A stretch of DNA of 64,000 bases, taken from the NCBI GenBank assembly GCA_963777585.1, contig CAVZRB010000017.1:21227-85226 (forward strand). The letters are read 5' to 3'. The DNA comes from an uncultured Gammaproteobacteria bacterium (GTDB taxonomy: Bacteria > Pseudomonadota > Gammaproteobacteria > Methylococcales > Methylomonadaceae). Of the stretch, positions 1-28,905 are shown piece by piece (the stretch's first letter is position 1; every line of letters begins with the position of its first letter). The notes beneath the pieces are model-generated. The model made no database searches. It saw only the letters and a program-made list of their open reading frames with translations, and was not told the DNA's origin. The translations under genes were made by a program, and so were the position numbers.

Positions 1-135
1 GTTGAGCAATGGGATCGATGCTCAATATTGTGATAATAGCGACGGCGACAACGGCTAAAATTATTTTCAGACGATTATCGTCGAGCATGTGATATTTTTC
101 ATGTTGGTTGCGCAAGCTTACATTGATCCAAGCTA

Positions 136-17651: not shown

Positions 17652-18047
17652 CTATTTTGGTGTAACTGGTCGTGCTCGAATACGGTTATTTCTTAGGTTA
17701 TGTTCAACCTCTACAAATCCAAAATGCTCCAATATAGATGGTATGTAGGAGGCGAATTCACCTCTTAATCCTGGTGTTAAACCATAGAAGCCATTAACAG
17801 AATTTTGTTCGGACCTAGCCCATTGTTCAATAGTGCCAACATTTGGTGATTCCTCTTCCCCTTGTGCACCCAATAAAACCCAGTTTCCATCACAATCGTC
17901 TTTGAGCCATAGATAAAGATCTAACAACGAGCGTAGCATATACGCATGCTGACTACCGTTCTGCGTTGTTATAACAATTCTATCTTGATCAGTATCTACA
18001 TCAAACTCAAATGGTATTCCTGTTGGGGTATTTGTTTTAATACTCAT
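17652..18047 (-). CDS. Conserved hypothetical protein
   Basis: Clean ORF from MSIKTN with TIEQWARS...GFYGL..GLRGEFASYIPSILEHFGFVEVEHN.RNNRIRA; function not assignable. Confidence 0.6.
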   Translation of the reverse strand: MSIKTNTPTGIPFEFDVDTDQDRIVITTQNGSQHAYMLRSLLDLYLWLKDDCDGNWVLLGAQGEEESPNVGTIEQWARSEQNSVNGFYGLTPGLRGEFASYIPSILEHFGFVEVEHNLRNNRIRARPVTPK

Positions 18048-18169
18048 AAATGTTTCTTTCTTGGATGTGGCCTTGTTGTAACATTTCACGGAACCGTCTA
18101 CGAATGCAGCATAGCAACGAGGCGATTTTGAATAATTGAAAACTATCATAATCGCCATCTGATTAATGT

Positions 18170-18475
18170 GAGAGCTCTCGCATAATCGCCATTTAATTGA
18201 AGCCAATCTGCCCGAATAATTAGTCTTGCTGCATTATCAGGGTGTTCAATACCATACGATGCCAATAACTAACTCCACGATTTTTGCAATCCAAAAGCAT
18301 TCCGGATCGCCAAGCCTAGGCTAAAGTGCAAATTGATCAAGTCTTGTTCTTGCATTGTAGCAAGGGCGACTTTCTGTACATTGTCCAGGATCATCATCAG
18401 TTGCTCAGCAGCTTCATCAACGGTTTCTGGTACACTGGAATTTTTCTGAAAAAAGTTGACCAATTATTGATCAAT
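18170..18475 (-). pseudogene. DUF6794-like small protein, disrupted
   Basis: PETVDEA...LHFSLGLAIRNAFGL, then after a frameshift LLAS.GIEHPDNAARLIIRA. Confidence 0.5.
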
Positions 18476-18966: not shown

Positions 18967-19711
18967 ATGCCTGTGCTAAAAACTTATTCTGTATGGGACG
19001 CCGGCACCCGCTGGCTTCACTGGATCAATGCGCTCTGTGTAGTCGCCTTGATGGTTGTCGGATTTATAATCCTTAACGCCGGCGCGCTCGATGTGTCCAC
19101 TACAGGCAAAGTGACCCTTAAAACGATCCACGTATGGATAGGCTATCTCTTAGTGCTGAGCCTGATCTGCCGCATTGTATGGGCTTTCATTGGCAACCGA
19201 TATGCCAGGTGGCATTCGATTCTTCCCGGCGGCAGAGGATATTTACAAGCGCTACGAAGCTATGTCGCGGCCTTCATAGCCGGCCATCCCGAACAGTATG
19301 TGGGACACAATCCAGTGGGGCGTCTGGGGATAGCCGCGATGCTTACTTCTTATCACTATTCAAGCGATTACCGGCTTGGTACTGGCGGGAACTGACCTGT
19401 TCTATCCACCCATCGGGCATTGGATCGCGCAGTGGGTGGCAGCGCCTGATGTTGCTCCTGGATCGCTAATACCCTATGCACCCGAGATGTACAATACGGC
19501 GGCCTATGAAAGCATGCGTGCTTTCCGTAAACCCGTTGAATTGGTGCACCTATACAGTTTTTATGTACTGGTTGTCGTCGTCGTTATGCACGTTGTGGCG
19601 GTAATCGTCACCGAGTTAAAGGAAGGTGGCAGCATCATTTCTGCAATGTTCACGGGACGTAAGATCATCAGCGAACGTCCGGTGGATGAAGAAGGTAGCA
19701 ACCATGACTGA
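18967..19711 (+). CDS. Cytochrome b/b6-domain membrane protein (Ni/Fe-hydrogenase cytochrome b type), one frameshift
   Basis: VWDAGTRWLHW, IHVWIG, GHNPVG, VHLY...MHV heme histidines, IISAMFTG. Confidence 0.85.
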
Positions 19712-19959
19712 TGCGAAGCACAGCAAAGCACACAAGCGGATGAACTTTGCGCGCCGCTGAGCTCCCGTTACCTTGTTACAAAATACAAATTTTTGACTGA
19801 CTGAAATGGATCATTAGCTACAGCAGTTGAATGGTAGTCAAACATTTCTGGATAAATTTTAAGTGCCTCTGTCTTTCTTGACTTATGTAAATAGACTTGA
19901 GAAGCTGAAACTATTCGATAAAACCGAGTTCAAAAGATCATCAAATTTAAGGAGATGCC

Positions 19960-21288
19960 ATGCTAACACGACGTCGCTTTCTAGGTTATGGCGGGGCAGG
20001 GATTCTGGCCCTTACCGCTGGTTGTAGACCTGAAAATTTCAATTGGCTGCCAAATCAGGAAGAGGCATCTTCAACTATAAACCTTTCGCTGGCAGACAAG
20101 GCAAAGTTCAAGAAGCTGAAAAATCTTCTCTTAGGGTATCCAATCAATATGAATACTCCACCCGAGGATTTTTTTGCCTGGCGGAGACAACTACTCGATG
20201 CGGGAATCAATACTTTTGCCTACAATAATGTGGGAAACCCGTTCAAAGACAGTTCTATCCCATTCAATACCCACGATTTTGAACGTGAACTCATCCTGAG
20301 ATTTGGCAAGTTATATGCCTTTCCTCCAAACAACACATGGGGCTTTCTTTCAAACAGCGGTACTGACAGTAATATGCATGGCATGTACATGGGGCGGACC
20401 ATTTTAAAAGGACGTACCGGAGTGTTGCCGAAAGCTTATTTCACCAAAGAAGCACATTATTCGATGCAGATTTTACGGGACTTGCTGGGGCTTGAAACAG
20501 TTTTTGTGGAAACACTTCCGGATGGCGGCATGGATCCCAATGACCTAAGGCAGAAGCTAGCCGATAACTCATCTCATCCGGCATTAGTGATAGCGACGAT
20601 CGGGACCACCTTTAAAGGCGCTATTGATCAGGTTGATGGTATTCAGGAAGTGTTAAAAGGCTATTCAAGTTATCTGCATTTGGATGCGGCATTATTTGGC
20701 GGTTACCTGCCATTTACCGCCCATGCCGGGGAAGTGATCATACCAATCCAAGAGCACACCCAGCTCTAGCTCGATATGATTCGATAGCTGTTTCCTGCCA
20801 TAAATTTTTCGGTTTTCCATCGCCTGCCGGTTTATTCATTACCACAAAAAGCCATTTTGATGAGTTTAATGAACTTTTTAGTCAAATTCATAATCCTGAA
20901 TATATCCATCATGTGCCGGGAACGATAACCTGCTCCAGAGATGCCGTAAAACCGGCGGAATTTTATTTCTTTTCAACGCCCATCGTCCATGGCCAAGCTA
21001 GCTAAAGACGCGCAGTCTATGTTGCAAAACACGGTTTACCTGATGGAACAAATGCAAGCCCACTTTTCCCATTTACAACCCACACGTGCTAACGATCTTT
21101 CTAATACCATTTTTTTTAGAAAGCCCAGCGACCGGATTGTGAAAAAATATTCACTGGCAACCATGCATTTGGAGATAAATCATCAAAAACAGGATTATGC
21201 GCATGTTGTGGTGATGCCGCATGCAAACCGGGACGTATTAACAGAATTTCTGACCGATCTGGATAAAGATTCGATTACCAGATTATGA
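19960..21288 (+). CDS. Group II PLP-dependent decarboxylase (histidine/serine decarboxylase clade) with Tat-lipoprotein signal; frameshifted
   Basis: TRRRFLG...LTAGC signal; GYPIN, NNVGNPF, GTDSN, HYS, GTTFKGAID, HLDAAL, DSIAVSCHKFFG (PLP Lys), TITCSR. Confidence 0.85.
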
Positions 21289-21558
21289 CGGATTAAAAAA
21301 TAGAATTGTTAGGACCGATGATTTTGATATTTAATCATTTAAAGCCAATTCAAATTAAGCCGGAATCTGGCTGACTAGTGTTGTTTTGGTTCAGAACACA
21401 AATAATACTCAGTTTCTCAACTCATATTCTGATCAAAATTCAACCGGCGCCAACAAAAGAGGACTATATTGCAGGTGAAAAGCTCAGGATTTCACTCTAT
21501 TAATAATCAGAATTCAGAATCAGATGTTTTTTTACTCATTCAACCGGGAATTAACGCC

Positions 21559-21867
21559 ATGACCAAAGATGAATTATTAGCAAAAACGAAAGCCACCATT
21601 TACGAACAACAAGCAAAACTCGAATCACTTAAAGAAAAAGCATTAGATGAGTCGCAAGAAGCGATTGATGATGTTAGAGCTGCAATTGCCGATTTGGAAC
21701 CCAAGTTAGAGCAAGCAAAAGCTAAAGCTAAGGAAATAGCAGAAGCAGCTGATGATAAGTGGGATGATATGAAAGAGTCGTTGGAGTCAGGATGGGACGA
21801 AGCATCATCAAAATTGGAAGAAGGCTGGAATAGCTTAACCTCATCCGTAAAATCATTTTTCTCTTAA
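21559..21867 (+). CDS. Small coiled-coil stress-response-like protein (sll1863-like)
   Basis: Charged coiled coil with ...ADDKWDDMKESLESGW pattern. Confidence 0.6.
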   Translation: MTKDELLAKTKATIYEQQAKLESLKEKALDESQEAIDDVRAAIADLEPKLEQAKAKAKEIAEAADDKWDDMKESLESGWDEASSKLEEGWNSLTSSVKSFFS

Positions 21868-22016
21868 AAATAAGAACAAACACTAATGACTCGGGTAACT
21901 TCCATGTTTCATTGGTAAAGTAAGGTTATGAAAAACTCAGAAGTATCTGCAAACGTTTATCTTGCAGATACTTCTGGGTTACATAATCAACACCGATTTA
22001 ACATTAGACCTCGAGT

Positions 22017-22880
22017 TTATTTTTTTGCCGCAGCTGAAAAGGTATCGCAAGTCGCTATATCTCCACTTTCCAATCCTTTACGAAGCCAAAAAGTGCGTTG
22101 CTCCGATGATCCGTGGGTAAATGATTCCGGGCTTATTCTTTTCCCGGCGCGTTTCAATAGGCGGTCATCTCCTATTGCGGAGGCGGCCCTGAGTCCTTCA
22201 TCGACATCTCCTGGTTCCAAAAGACTGCGATATTTATCGGCATAGTGAGCCCATACCCCCGCAAAACAATCCGCTTGCAATTCTAATAAGACCGATAAAG
22301 CATTGGCCTGAGTCGCACCGCTACGACTTTGCAAATCATGGACTTTGCCGGAAATCCCCAAGAGGTTTTGCACATGATGACCGACTTCGTGTCCAATGAC
22401 ATACGCTTGAGCGAAATCGCCCGGGGCGCCCAAGTGATCCAATTCCCGGAAAAACCCCAGATCGAGGTAAACTTTTCTATCGCCAGGACAATAGAAAGGC
22501 CCCGTAGCTGCGGAATTATATCCGCATGCGGATGAAACTTGATCGGAAAACAAAACCAGTTTCGGCACTTGATATTGCATGCCCATGCGAGGGAAAATCG
22601 TGGCCCAGGTATCTTCGGTATCCGCCAATATGGCGGATACAAATTGAGCGGATTCATCGTTGCCAGGCGTTTGTCGAGGGGAGACCGCAGTTGTCGAACC
22701 GCCCTCAAGGAACCCTTGCGATAGCATAGCTAATAGCTCCAAAGGGTTTTCTCCCAATGCGACTCCTATTAGCATTACGACCACCAGCAGACCACCGCTC
22801 AGTTTAATCGATGACCCGCCGATACGCGCACCACGGCGATCCTCAACGTTATCGCTTTGTCTACCTTTTTTCCACAACAT
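22017..22880 (-). CDS. ypfJ: Neutral zinc metallopeptidase (YpfJ/KPN_02809 family)
   Basis: RQSDNVEDRRG, GPFYCPGD, HEVGHHVQ, ELQADC, IGDD, SFTHG. Confidence 0.92.
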   Translation of the reverse strand: MLWKKGRQSDNVEDRRGARIGGSSIKLSGGLLVVVMLIGVALGENPLELLAMLSQGFLEGGSTTAVSPRQTPGNDESAQFVSAILADTEDTWATIFPRMGMQYQVPKLVLFSDQVSSACGYNSAATGPFYCPGDRKVYLDLGFFRELDHLGAPGDFAQAYVIGHEVGHHVQNLLGISGKVHDLQSRSGATQANALSVLLELQADCFAGVWAHYADKYRSLLEPGDVDEGLRAASAIGDDRLLKRAGKRISPESFTHGSSEQRTFWLRKGLESGDIATCDTFSAAAKK

Positions 22881-23005
22881 GATGTTTACACGCCAAACCC
22901 GGTGGTCAAAAATAATAAATATTCAATTTGATCTGTTAAGTTACACTGAAAGCCTCAAAGAGTTTGCTTGTTTCAATTTTGGAGCGGCTTTAAGTGCGCT
23001 TAAGT

Positions 23006-23713
23006 TTAAGGGATACGTAAATGTTGGCCCGGAAATATGCGATCCGGGTTGCTTAAAATATCCCGATTCGCATCAAAAATACGTTGCCATTGATTAGCAT
23101 CGTTGTAGAACTGTTTGGAAATCTTAGACAGCGTATCGCCACTGGCTACAGTGTAGGTTCGAACGTTTGCAGTCGCCGAACCCATGCCTGTATCAACAGA
23201 GCCGGCGCTTGTGATTGTTGTTTGTTGCTCTGGATTGGGCGATTGTTCCTCATCTTCTTTATTGCCAAAATAGGATGCCGCCACTTTCGCTGCAACCGCG
23301 GCCCCCACTCCACCAAGAAGCACTTTGCCCCATGTCGGGAAACTGCTTGATTCGGGTACCTTGCCGTCTGGCGTCAGTTTATCGACCATAGCGGGTAAAA
23401 CCTGCGAGAGCACTGATGCGCCTTGAGACTCAGGGATGCCTGCCTGTTGAGCCAGAGCAGCAATCTGGTCTTTGCCCAATACATTGGCCAATTGATCGGG
23501 GTTTATGCTCTTGTTTTCTCCCGTACCAACCCAGGACGCGGCAAGATCACCCAAGCCTGATTGTTGAAATTTATTAACCAACCCGTCTATGCCGCCCATT
23601 GTCTGCAGCATTCCCAATGCGCCATTCAATAAATTTTGGCTTTGGTTTTCAGTTTGTCCTGAAGAATTACTTGCTCCGATGGCGGATTTAACTATTTCTG
23701 TGAAAAGGCTCAT
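23006..23713 (-). CDS. YidB (DUF937)-LysM fusion protein
   Basis: YidB motifs [22 protein letters not shown]...[11 protein letters not shown]; C-terminal Lys[14 protein letters not shown]...[10 protein letters not shown]; start MSLFTE after GGAG. Confidence 0.85.
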
Positions 23714-24148
23714 AAGGTTTCTCCTCGTGAAATTAGCATAAGATAAAAAGCATTCAGACACTAAAGTCTTCAAGAAATCGCAGAAAAAACTTTCAGTGGC
23801 TTGAAAGCCAATTTATCGCATTATTGCTTGAAAAGATAGAAAATTTATACTGCTCAAATGCTTAAAAGTATTGAGTTTTAGCTTTAGAAAAACACTCATT
23901 CAAAACATAAATGTAACATTCGGTAGTGGCGGTATTTAACATGGCTATCTCCAATAATCCCATGGCCTCCATGATTCATTGGCAAGAAGGCTATGCCCAT
24001 AGAGGCATAAAAAAGCGAAGAAACTTTCAAAAAAGAGTGGTTTGGGATTGGCATTAACCCCAGAACCAAGGGCTGCATAGTGTTGGCAACTCGTTGCAGC
24101 ATGGTTCTGGTTTTAAGTAGAAATTAATGAGGTTCCCCAATGTGCTAT

Positions 24149-24523
24149 TTAGTTCAACAATTCTGGCGGGATATTACCACCGTTCTGTGCGAGTTTTTGC
24201 AATACGGTTTTATGCAGCCAAATATTCATTTGGGCTGAGTCTCCCATTGCTTGGGCTGGACAACCCAATTCTGTCGCAAGTTCTTTACGCGCGGTTAAAC
24301 TGCTGTCAAGCCCAAGTAATTTTAACAAATCGACAATCGAAACTTTCCAGTTAAGCTTTTCTGCACTGGAAGCGGCTAATCCTTCCAATTTTGTTACGAC
24401 ATCGACCACAGCAATTGCAGCAGCAGGGGCAGAAGCTGTTGCTGGTTGGCTTGCATCAGGTGCTTCCGCAGCGGCAGCATTACGAATGCCCAGTTTTTCA
24501 AGAATGGAATTAAAGAGACTCAT
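24149..24523 (-). CDS. DUF3597 family protein
   Basis: LNWKVSIVDLLKLLGLDSSL.ARKELA.ELG...SA.MNIWLHK.V...LA.NGG. Confidence 0.9.
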   Translation of the reverse strand: MSLFNSILEKLGIRNAAAAEAPDASQPATASAPAAAIAVVDVVTKLEGLAASSAEKLNWKVSIVDLLKLLGLDSSLTARKELATELGCPAQAMGDSAQMNIWLHKTVLQKLAQNGGNIPPELLN

Positions 24524-24871
24524 GGTTGATCCTTAAATAGTATAGTTGAGTTGTAGTGGTAATTTTGCATGACTGAAATAAGCAATTCAACTCATACAAA
24601 AATTGTGAATAATTACTTTAGCACTATATCTAACGTTAGTCATTCATGTGCAAAATATTTTGACTTTGGAAAAGCTTAATACTTAAATCCTGCAATCTGG
24701 AAAATAGTGGACTCTGTTTGACAGGAATGAGGTTTGAAATACACGTGAGGCATTGGGGAAGGCGGGTTACGACGGGCGGATAATCCAGATGATGACGGAT
24801 GACATGTTTTTTGCGCGTCTAACTCATCTACGCTTTTAGTGAAAAATTAACTGAATCAGTTGCAAACTTAC

Positions 24872-26386: not shown

Positions 26387-28905
26387 TTATCGATCCTGGG
26401 AAATGTCCAGTTCAGCCAAACGCCGGTAGAAAGTGGCCCGGCTGATACCGAGCAGTTTGGCGGCTTGTTGGCGGTTGCCGCCCGTTTTTTCTAGGGCAGC
26501 CAGAATGCGGCCCCGCTCGTCTCCCGCGGCGGCCATGGGTTCGACAACGGCGGACACTGCGCCCCGGCTGAATTCGGGCGGCAGGTCCTGGGGATTGATG
26601 CGCTCGCCTTTGCTGTGGATGACCGCGTAGTCCACGCAGGCTTTCAGCTCGCGCACATTGCCCGGCCAGTCGTAATTCAGCAGGCATTGCATGGCTTCGG
26701 TACCGAACCGGGGCTGAGTCCGGCTGGAAAAGTGATGGCTCTGGCTGAGGAATGCTTCCACCAGAAGCGGAATGTCAGTTTTGCGTTCCCGAAGGGCCGG
26801 CACATAAAGCCGTGCCACTCGAAGCCGATAGAGCAAGTCCTCGCGGAAGCGGCCTTCACGGGCCTCGTTGGCCAGATCCTTGTGCGTGGCTACCAGGATC
26901 CGTACATCCACCTTGCGTGTGCGGGTTTCTCCAAGACGGGTTATTTCTTTTTCCTGCAGCACGCGCAGCAGGCTGGCCTGCATGCTCAGGGGCAGGTCGC
27001 CGATCTCGTCCAGAAACAGGGTGCCTCCGTGAGCGGCCTCGAAAAAGCCCTCCTGATCCTTGACGGCGCCCGTAAACGCGCCCTTGCGGTGGCCGAAGAG
27101 CTGGCTGGTCAGCAGCGACTCGCTAAGGCCGGCGGAGTTAACGGCGATGAAGGCCCCGTCCTTGCGCGGACTGGCCGCATGGATGCTGTGGGCGACCAGT
27201 TCCTTGCCGACACCGGTTTCGCCATCGATCAGCACCGTCCAGTCGCCGCGCGCCACATCATCGATGAGCCGGTAAAGCTCCCGCATGGGCTCTGAGTTGC
27301 CGAGCATCCGGCCGTAGCGGCTCTCTTCGATGGCTTGCCGCAGTTGATGGATTTCGGTGACGTCGTAGAGCAGCAGAATGTGGCGGTCGGGGTCCTGGGG
27401 ATCGTCGCGTACATCGCATTCCACCCAGTATTCTTTCCGATCCGCTCCCTGCCAATGCAGGGTGATTCGATGGCGTTCGGCGGGCGGGAGGTCCAGCAAC
27501 TGCTGCAATTGCAATTTCGACTGTATCCCGAAGGGCAACACCTGATCCCAGGGCCGGCCCATGGCGGTGTTGCGGTCGATGCCGGTAAAATGTTCACAGG
27601 ATTCGCTGACAAATTCCACGCGATGATCGGCGTCCAGCATCAGGGTGCCCACCCGGAATTGATTGAGGAGAACCAACAGATTTTCCTGGCTTTTCTTGAG
27701 TTCGGCCAGTGTATGCTCGGCCAGCGCCTCGGCTGCCTTGCGCTCGGAAATGTCGCGCACGATACCCTTGAACAAGCTGCCCCGAGGGAGTTTCACCTCG
27801 GTCACAGCGAGCTCGACGGGGAATACGGTTCCGTCCTTCCGCCGCGCCGATATTTCCCGGACGGTTCCGAGCATTTTGGCTCGCCCGGTTTTCAGGTAGT
27901 TCTCAAGGTAGCGGTCATGCTGGCTGTGGTACGGCTCAGGCATCAGCAGCTTGACGTTATGGCCCAGCAGTTCTTCCGGGCTGTAGCCGAACATGCGCTC
28001 CGTCGCAGGGTTGACGGATTGGATTGTTCCGGACGTGTCGATGGTGATGATGGCATCGAGGGAGCTGTTCAGAAGGGCGCGATGGCGCGCTTCCTCTTCC
28101 TTCAGCTTGTTTTCCTTTTCCCTGATCTCGGAGATATCGGCAAAAATCGCAACCGCATGGGTGACATTGCCTTGCAGGTTATAGTATCGGAGACGCGCTG
28201 AAATGGAGCGGGATGATCCGGCCATCGCGCCGAATCTCCATGTCGGTCACGGCCACCGTGTCGCCCGCCAGGGCACGCATGATCGGCATGGCTTCAAGCG
28301 GATAGGGCTGATCGGTGCCGGCCACGGTAACCTGGCAATACGCCGCCAGATCCCCAATCATCGCGCCCGGCTCGAATATTTTTCCCGTAATGGCAGCTGG
28401 CCGCTTTGTTGGCATAGAAGTTCCGGCCCTGCGCATCCAGAACCAGTACGCCGAAAGGGATGGTTTCGAGGCATTCGTAAAATTGCCGGGCTTGCCTTTG
28501 TACTTCGGCCTGGGCTTCCCTTTGCGCCGTGACATCCGTTTGGATGCCCACGTAATGGGAGAGCTGGCCCTGGTCATCGAAAACCGGAGCCAGGCGCAGT
28601 TCATTCCAGAACAACGTCCCGTCCTTGCGGTAATTCCTGAGGACGACCGCCACTTCCCGGCGCTCGTCCAGCGCCCGACGGAGGTGATCCAAGTCGGGCT
28701 GGTCATGGTCCTCGCCTTGAAGGAACCGGCAGTTCCGGCCCAGGATTTCGTCCTTCGCGTAGCCCGTCATGACTTCAAATGCCCGGTTCACATAGACGAG
28801 AGGCGTATCGACCTGTGTCGCGTCAGCTACAGTGATGCCACAACTGGCGGAGTCCAGCGCTTTGACGATCCAGTCTGGAATTTCTTGGTGGTTAGTTACG
28901 TGCAC
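26387..28905 (-). CDS. Sigma54 enhancer-binding protein: LOV-PAS-hemePAS-PAS-AAA+-Fis HTH (two frameshifts join ORFs 28294-28905, 28179-28706 and 26387-28225)
   Basis: LOV GRNCRFLQG/NYRKDG/FWNEL/GIQ; FixL-like LMPEPYHSQHDRY; GETGVGKE, GAFTGA, LFLDEIG, FREDLLYRL, WPGNVREL; HTH AAKLLGISRATFYRRL. Confidence 0.88.

Follow-up and report, generated by a model that had tools for sequence, protein, structure and literature searches.

Sequence evidence for a probable Tat-exported, lipid-anchored group II amino-acid decarboxylase encoded by a frame-broken gene of an uncultured Methylobacter

Can an amino-acid decarboxylase that depends on pyridoxal 5'-phosphate (PLP) be exported and do its work outside the cytoplasm? 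The question is raised by a gene at positions 19960-21288 (+ strand) of a 64,000-nt stretch of Methylobacter DNA (GCA_963777585.1, contig CAVZRB010000017.1, positions 21,227-85,226 of the forward strand), called here the window. The initial annotation of this DNA, made from the letters alone, had described the product as a group II PLP decarboxylase carrying a lipoprotein signal of the twin-arginine translocation (Tat) type. As far as we know, group II PLP decarboxylases are regarded as cytoplasmic, all characterised ones being so to our knowledge, and Tat substrates are regarded as carriers of redox cofactors. Tat cargo mostly contains molybdopterin, Fe-S, Cu, FAD (flavin adenine dinucleotide) or NADP (nicotinamide adenine dinucleotide phosphate), and we know of no characterised Tat substrate with a PLP cofactor. 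From the analysis described below we consider it likely that the gene encodes a Tat-exported, lipid-anchored PLP amino-acid decarboxylase acting outside the cytoplasm, and that the breaks in its reading frame are artefactual.

These breaks have to be dealt with before the protein can be discussed. Positions 19960-21288 had been taken as a single gene of 443 codons, without mention of any frame shift, but they do not form one open reading frame (ORF): the first frame ends at a stop at 20769 after 269 codons. The signal peptide and the first 259 residues share this frame, the SCHKFFG block with the PLP-binding lysine is in a different one (stop-to-stop 20637-21005, Lys codon 20802-20804), and the last 112 residues are back in the first (20950-21288). 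Thus the decarboxylase domain and the PLP-lysine block are present as the initial annotation stated, but not in one uninterrupted frame. DNA alignment with the orthologs of four congeneric genomes (G007, G017, G004 and G012; nucleotide identity 83-93%) located insertions of 1 bp at exactly three positions (20737, 20757 and 20978); a few additional gaps appeared opposite the most distant of these genomes. With the three bases removed, the gene encodes 441 amino acids without a stop, and 428 of the 441 residues (97%) are identical to those of an intact Methylobacter protein (P0002).

Insertions of the same kind are found in essential genes of this assembly (2.68 Mb, 23 contigs, 71% complete). 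rpoB is in at least four frame pieces and rpoC in five. In comparison with three congeners, 14 single-base insertions and no recurring single-base deletion are seen in 8.2 kb of rpoC-rpoB coding sequence (locus L093, G000:C19:42300-50700), i.e. approximately 1.7 insertions per kb, sometimes clustered; a single one of the alignments also has some compensating indels where the sequences diverge. The median ORF of the genome is 207 amino acids long, as against 265-438 in the loci of relatives, and the cytochrome b561 gene upstream of the decarboxylase gene is split likewise, at 19342. Because rpoB and rpoC carry the same insertions, and because the corrected reading is intact and 97% identical to P0002, these alignments identify the three frame breaks as assembly artefacts. 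Programmed frameshifting or recoding was considered as the cause of the shifts and rejected, since rpoB and rpoC are riddled with the same insertions and the orthologs are plainly open.

The breaks could also be real mutations, in which case the gene would be a true pseudogene and this strain would have no functional enzyme, even though the family is functional elsewhere. The frame of the catalytic core is broken three times, including around the PLP lysine, and the gene is patchily distributed in the genus, hence dispensable, full-length orthologs having been found in only 5 of the 19 Methylobacter genomes searched. However, the insertion rate of rpoB and rpoC predicts about 2.3 insertions for a gene of 1.33 kb, the sequence outside the three bases has no stops and no other sign of decay, and similar breaks affect the neighbouring genes for cytochrome b561 and the sigma54 activator. 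We regard a pseudogene as very unlikely. At about 1.7 spurious insertions per kb, apparent pseudogenes in this assembly cannot in general be trusted.

Other parts of the window are affected too. Fragments of LigA and SMC at 8.6-11.9 kb are split the same way, and extra bases of this kind also interrupt the gene of a PAS/LOV sigma54 enhancer-binding protein (26387-28905, - strand). The nearest database homolog of the decarboxylase (P0001, 434 amino acids, ENA, 98% identity) has a C-terminus reading ...ANRERINRISDRSG, which is the second-frame reading of the window and corresponds to positions 21120-21266. The P0001 record is therefore frameshifted as well, and this assembly or a comparably error-prone one is its probable source.

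The identity of the catalytic domain is clear from several kinds of comparison. The first frame piece alone matched PF00282 with 40.7 bits (cut-off 27 bits), and the domain is present in all full-length homologs. The closest solved structures are those of the plant serine decarboxylase (SerDC) AtSerDC (8JG7) and alanine decarboxylase (AlaDC) CsAlaDC (8JIK), both described in PMC11407765 (30% identity, E value 1e-48 in the sequence search with 8JG7 as best match, Foldseek E value about 1e-31); the histidine decarboxylase (HDC) of Photobacterium (7ERV, 9e-39) was also among the best sequence matches in the PDB. An AlphaFold2 (AF2) model computed with a shallow alignment of 10 sequences was unusable (predicted local distance difference test score, pLDDT, 41), and the modelling was repeated with 100 sequences, which gave a pLDDT of 92.3. 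Scores stayed at 51-59 over residues 1-40, in keeping with a signal and a tether, and exceeded 85 from residue 41 or so onwards. The top Foldseek matches of the model were all group II decarboxylases, namely AlaDC, SerDC, HDC and methionine decarboxylase (MetDC), with template modelling (TM) scores of 0.74-0.87, and a search of the ESM Atlas returned generic decarboxylase clusters only.

The residues of the active site were mapped with the help of the AtSerDC paper (PMC11407765) and a HMMER alignment (Table 1). The landmarks of the domain are YP-I-N-M near residue 60, H166, T217, D242, K281, Y314 and S325/R326; of these H166, D242, K281 and Y314 were all found in the frame pieces of the window. 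Since no PLP-binding or catalytic residue varies within the family, the protein should be a true decarboxylase.

Table 1. Features of the decarboxylase gene and its product, and neighbouring genes discussed in the text
Feature	Window position	Residue	Strand	Remarks
Shine-Dalgarno AAGGAG	19949-19954		+	5 nt upstream of ATG 19960; direct reading of sequence
Predicted signal peptide	19960-20025	1-22	+	TIGR01409 match, PROSITE-style lipobox rule, conservation in homologs
Twin-arginine motif T-R-R-R-F-L	19966-19983	3-8	+	Inside signal peptide; followed by Gly/Ala-rich hydrophobic region, then lipobox
Lipobox L-T-A-G-C, Cys22 codon	20023-20025	22	+	
Predicted flexible tether	20026-20085	~23-42	+	Low AF2 pLDDT; variable among homologs
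Group II PLP decarboxylase catalytic domain	20086-21285		+	Three extra bases skipped; PF00282, PDB, AF2 and Foldseek matches
Base 1 (A), read as spurious	20737		+	+1 shift; gap versus orthologs in G007, G017, G004, G012
Base 2 (C), read as spurious	20757		+	Second +1 shift; ortholog alignment
Base 3 (G), read as spurious	20978		+	Third +1 shift, original frame regained; ortholog alignment
Stop codon TGA	21286-21288		+	
Phosphate-binding Gly-Thr		G134, T135		Invariant in family
Stacking His		H166		AtSerDC His201; invariant in family
Thr to PLP O3		T217		Invariant in family
Asp to pyridine N1		D242		AtSerDC Asp282; invariant in family
Ala facing ring		A244		Invariant in family
His-Lys with Schiff-base lysine (SCHK)		H280, K281		K281 is AtSerDC Lys314; invariant in family
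Catalytic-loop Tyr		Y314		AtSerDC Tyr341; invariant in family
Ser from partner subunit		S325		Invariant in family
Stand-alone TIR-domain protein, 165 aa	16839-17336		+	PF13676, 51 bits
DUF6855 gene	17652-18206		-	Next to TIR gene
YpfJ-like Zn metallopeptidase	22017-22880		-	In 3.4-kb extra segment
YidB-LysM protein	23006-23773		-	In 3.4-kb extra segment
DUF3597 protein	24149-24523		-	In 3.4-kb extra segment

The evidence for export lies in the N-terminus, which is encoded from ATG 19960 and reads MLTRRRFLGYGGAGILALTAGC. It was matched by the Tat signal model TIGR01409 with 20.1 bits (cut-off 16.7), and the sequence L-T-A-G-C22 satisfies a PROSITE-style lipobox rule, so the twin-arginine motif and the lipobox pointed out in the initial annotation are both present. 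With this score, and with a motif kept across phyla, the signal exceeds a chance resemblance. Protein-level conservation of residues 1-22 extends to relatives of only about 55% identity. This conservation, together with the strong Shine-Dalgarno sequence 5 nt before the ATG, places the start of translation upstream of the signal. The signal was then surveyed in 108 full-length homologs drawn from a set of 5.8 billion proteins. RRxF[L/F/I] was found in 98 of them, the lipobox Cys in 92, and the two together in 89; the Cys is also kept in the 'ATC/AVC' variants of the Nitrosomonas type. Every major lineage has retained the signal (Planctomycetes, Nitrosomonas, Nitrotoga, Cyclobacteriaceae and Puniceicoccaceae), the next 20 residues varying freely. 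The residue following the Cys (+2) is mostly Arg and is Asp in none of the 108 homologs. The genome also encodes TatC (239.7 bits, contig C19) and LspA (PF01252, 158.9 bits). The exported PLP decarboxylase proposed in the initial annotation is thus supported at the sequence level, in silico attempts to refute it having failed to overturn it.

Several observations nevertheless weigh against this interpretation. The Pfam model TAT_signal (PF10518) scored 15.8 bits, under its cut-off of 22.7, and position -3 of the lipobox is occupied by Thr, Ser or Ala, not by Leu. In a small subclade (P0086, P0104, P0113 and L041:2497-3819) the signal has decayed while the enzyme is intact: the RR pair is lost and acidic residues (Asp/Glu) have appeared in the hydrophobic region. 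Since the enzyme is kept in this subclade, export is not obligatory for every member of the family, and the subclade may represent a natural reversion to the cytoplasm. The three insertions, which lie within 240 nt and jointly restore the frame, form a somewhat tidy pattern; a comparable cluster was found in rpoB (5330/5342/5351). Finally, neither the neighbouring genes nor the literature support any physiological role, the pH control, signalling and lipid head-group supply named in the initial annotation being neither favoured nor disfavoured.

Some of these points would fit a protein whose N-terminus is not a cleaved Tat or lipoprotein signal at all, the enzyme being either cytoplasmic or attached to the inner membrane through an uncleaved N-terminal anchor with its catalytic domain in the cytoplasm. 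The cytoplasmic location of all characterised group II decarboxylases known to us, the subthreshold TAT_signal score, the loss of RR and the charged hydrophobic region tolerated in one subclade, and a hydrophobic region that is short and Gly-rich all speak for it. A weakly hydrophobic, Gly-rich region is, however, typical of Tat signals. Moreover, the full S/T-R-R-x-F-L motif and an invariant Cys about 15 residues further on are kept in at least five phyla, whereas the next 20 residues are free to vary, TIGR01409 scored above its cut-off, and the classical Sec signal peptides of related clades, with their AxA sites, indicate that an extracytoplasmic location recurs in this branch. We find this alternative quite unlikely.

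If the protein is exported, as we prefer to think on the basis of its conserved N-terminus, its path can be envisaged as follows. The enzyme would fold, dimerise and take up PLP in the cytoplasm, and would then be exported by the Tat system by means of the TRRRFL signal. Lgt and LspA would lipidate and cleave it at Cys22. With Arg, and never Asp, at position +2, the lipoprotein would be passed on to the outer membrane, where a tether of some 20 residues would hold it on the periplasmic side. The outer-membrane location, proposed because the +2 residue is never Asp, is probable by analogy, the sorting rule having been established for enterobacteria and being extrapolated here. In the periplasm the enzyme would decarboxylate a free L-amino acid to an amine and CO2, acting as a stand-alone enzyme without a dedicated transporter or partner gene. 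This whole path is inferred from sequence, whereas the fold, the full set of catalytic residues, the conserved signal, the distribution and mixed-taxon tree of the family and the artefactual origin of the frameshifts are direct observations.

A scan of genome contigs identified 73 loci, 72 of which encode members of the family (52-92% identity); the remaining one (L092, Dehalococcoidia, 32%) is an outgroup. Among the Methylococcales the gene is carried by Methylobacter, Methylomicrobium, Methylomarinum, Crenothrix, Methylohalobius and Methylotetracoccus. Other carriers are several species of Nitrosomonas, Ca. Nitrotoga, Nitrospira, Pirellulaceae and other Planctomycetes, and further ones Cyclobacteriaceae, Puniceicoccaceae and metagenome-assembled genomes (MAGs) named Burkholderiales. 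Cultured carriers are available (Methylobacter tundripaludum, Methylomicrobium lacus, Nitrosomonas nitrosa, N. aestuarii, N. halophila and Aporhodopirellula aestuarii). In an exhaustive profile search the family collapsed into one full-length representative at 50% identity. The maximum-likelihood tree showed the Tat clade as monophyletic (SH-aLRT support 99), within a superclade of 26 sequences that is separate from the serine decarboxylase (SDC; YPY) and the HDC-type (YPE, P0210) sequences. Taxa are intermixed in the tree, Planctomycetes falling inside Methylococcales and M. marinus grouping with Thermoguttaceae, which indicates horizontal transfer of the decarboxylase gene.

Two members of the same superclade, P0127 and P0129, led to a larger family of at least 2840 proteins (E value 1e-40 or lower), from sources such as Desulfonatronum, Omnitrophota and Nitrosomonadales MAGs (P0127, P0129 and P0271-P0389). 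Of the 118 best hits examined, 108 had a hydrophobic N-terminus of the classical Sec type, with sites such as ALA or AQA, and the lipobox was found in only six. The two families share about 38% identity, a similar YP[V/I]N pocket and a predicted extracytoplasmic location. They differ in the kind of signal, in the end of the pocket motif, which is YP[V/I]NQ in the Sec-signal family whereas Gln is replaced by Met in the protein described here, and in the lysine block (SGHK vs. SCHK). The Sec-signal family appears to be uncharacterised. A class-level genome search with one of its members (P0297) gave matches at about 35% identity only. The occurrence of Sec-type signals in this family shows that extracytoplasmic location, as predicted from signal peptides, recurs in this branch of the superfamily.

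What the substrate might be is a separate question. The initial annotation had suggested histamine or ethanolamine among the possible products, and an ordinary histidine or serine decarboxylase that happens to be exported has some support in the database matches: the best named family in NCBIfam is histidine decarboxylase (NF002748), the best PDB matches are the plant SerDC/AlaDC enzymes and the Photobacterium HDC, and many members of the family are annotated as histidine decarboxylase by the Joint Genome Institute (JGI). However, the NF002748 score of 247.3 bits is under the equivalog cut-off of 305 bits, and the clade is set apart from both the SDC and the HDC groups with strong support. The residue X of the pocket motif YPX also differs. 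It is Ile in the window, and Ile, Val and Leu in 71, 44 and 5 sequences of the family, respectively, whereas P0210, the HDC-type sequence of the representative set, which we take to be a classical HDC like the Morganella enzyme, has YPE at this site. In plants X sets the specificity for Ser (Tyr111) or Ala (Phe106), and the Y111I replacement cost AtSerDC more than 95% of its serine activity (PMC11407765). With the specificity Tyr replaced by Ile/Val and the NF002748 score below cut-off, the protein belongs with neither the canonical HDCs nor the canonical SDCs. Histamine and ethanolamine are therefore disfavoured as products, and an ordinary HDC or SDC appears unlikely. The Ile/Val residue in itself argues, weakly, against Ser and His as substrates. 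Our guess, offered with low confidence, is that the substrate is neither of these two but another amino acid, perhaps aliphatic or larger.

It is useful to compare the proposed exported decarboxylase with the systems it most resembles. It shares with the plant SerDC and AlaDC the group II fold, the PLP contacts (His stack, Asp-N1, Thr-O3 and S-x-H-K), the catalytic-loop Tyr and the YPX motif. The plant enzymes lack a signal peptide, have Tyr or Phe as X in place of Ile/Val, and belong to separate phylogenetic groups. The Gram-negative HDCs (NF002748; Photobacterium phosphoreum 7ERV), the best-scoring named family, have the same fold and catalytic residues, but identity is about 28%, they are cytoplasmic proteins of about 375 amino acids without the 45-residue N-terminal extension found here, their pocket motif is YPE and not YP[I/V], and the antiporter or siderophore context is missing here. 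With the cofactor-containing Tat lipoproteins our protein has in common a lipobox Cys placed after an S/T-RRxFL signal and, as predicted, a pre-folded, cofactor-loaded and probably oligomeric cargo. Broad-spectrum racemases such as BsrV use Sec-type signals and have the PLP fold of alanine racemase, a fold type different from that of the protein described here. BsrV of Vibrio cholerae, a periplasmic PLP enzyme of a Gram-negative bacterium that acts on free amino acids (PMC7890096), is the nearest precedent for periplasmic PLP chemistry; it differs from our protein in being a racemase, not a decarboxylase, and in having no Tat motif.

Our literature search on exported (Tat, periplasmic or lipoprotein) group II decarboxylases, including those of methanotrophs and nitrifiers, found none, and no Tat substrate with a PLP cofactor was found either. 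A conserved, horizontally shared family in which a Tat signal and a lipid anchor go together with a complete decarboxylase active site would imply that amines are formed outside the cytoplasm, and this in drivers of the methane and nitrogen cycles (Methylococcales, Nitrosomonas, Nitrotoga, Nitrospira and Pirellulaceae). The Sec-signal family suggests that the choice of an extracytoplasmic compartment is widespread. An exported PLP enzyme would also raise the question of the route by which PLP gets to the periplasm. Only tentatively do we go further and suggest that this could be the first Tat cargo with a PLP cofactor and the founding member of a widespread class of extracytoplasmic decarboxylases with a Tat-lipoprotein and a Sec branch, which would provide methane oxidisers, ammonia and nitrite oxidisers and planctomycetes with a periplasmic amine-forming reaction. 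The amine might serve metal (copper) handling, envelope modification or interspecies signalling, and the gene would have been passed horizontally among these co-occurring groups.

The genes around the decarboxylase gene were inspected in the window and in the related loci. In the window the order is TIR protein, DUF6855, cytochrome b561, decarboxylase gene, YpfJ-like Zn peptidase and YidB-LysM, followed by DUF3597, a 334-aa protein and the PAS/sigma54 activator. No transporter was found within about 10 kb of the gene in the window, and the 128 immediate neighbours in the 73 loci (Pfam scan, 109 families) included no amino-acid permease or antiporter, so the absence of an adjacent antiporter noted in the initial annotation holds for the whole set. 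All-against-all clustering of 904 ORFs of the 73 loci revealed no partner family present in more than seven loci. The decarboxylase gene behaves as a self-contained accessory unit. A promoter and terminator scan of 19650-21500 yielded nothing useful, and no sigma54 -24/-12 site was found by eye upstream of the gene.

The most frequent neighbour is a multicopper oxidase gene. In the Nitrosomonas clade (L074:6340-7956, L077, L078, L080, L081 and L083) it immediately precedes the decarboxylase gene in the same orientation and is itself preceded by a gene with a metallo-beta-lactamase fold; a fragment of a multicopper oxidase gene also adjoins the decarboxylase gene in one Methylomicrobium MAG (L039:9414-10037). 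A di-haem cytochrome c peroxidase/MauG-like gene is upstream in three loci (L026, L060 and L082), and Mdh is encoded near the gene in Methylohalobius. These neighbours were considered as a basis for assigning a function and rejected as local themes.

In comparison with the syntenic region of the closest relative (G007, locus L019), the window contains an additional segment of 3.4 kb (21349-24723) downstream of the decarboxylase gene, with the YpfJ-like, YidB-LysM and DUF3597 genes. On the other side, the stand-alone TIR-domain protein encoded next to the DUF6855 gene may be defence-related.

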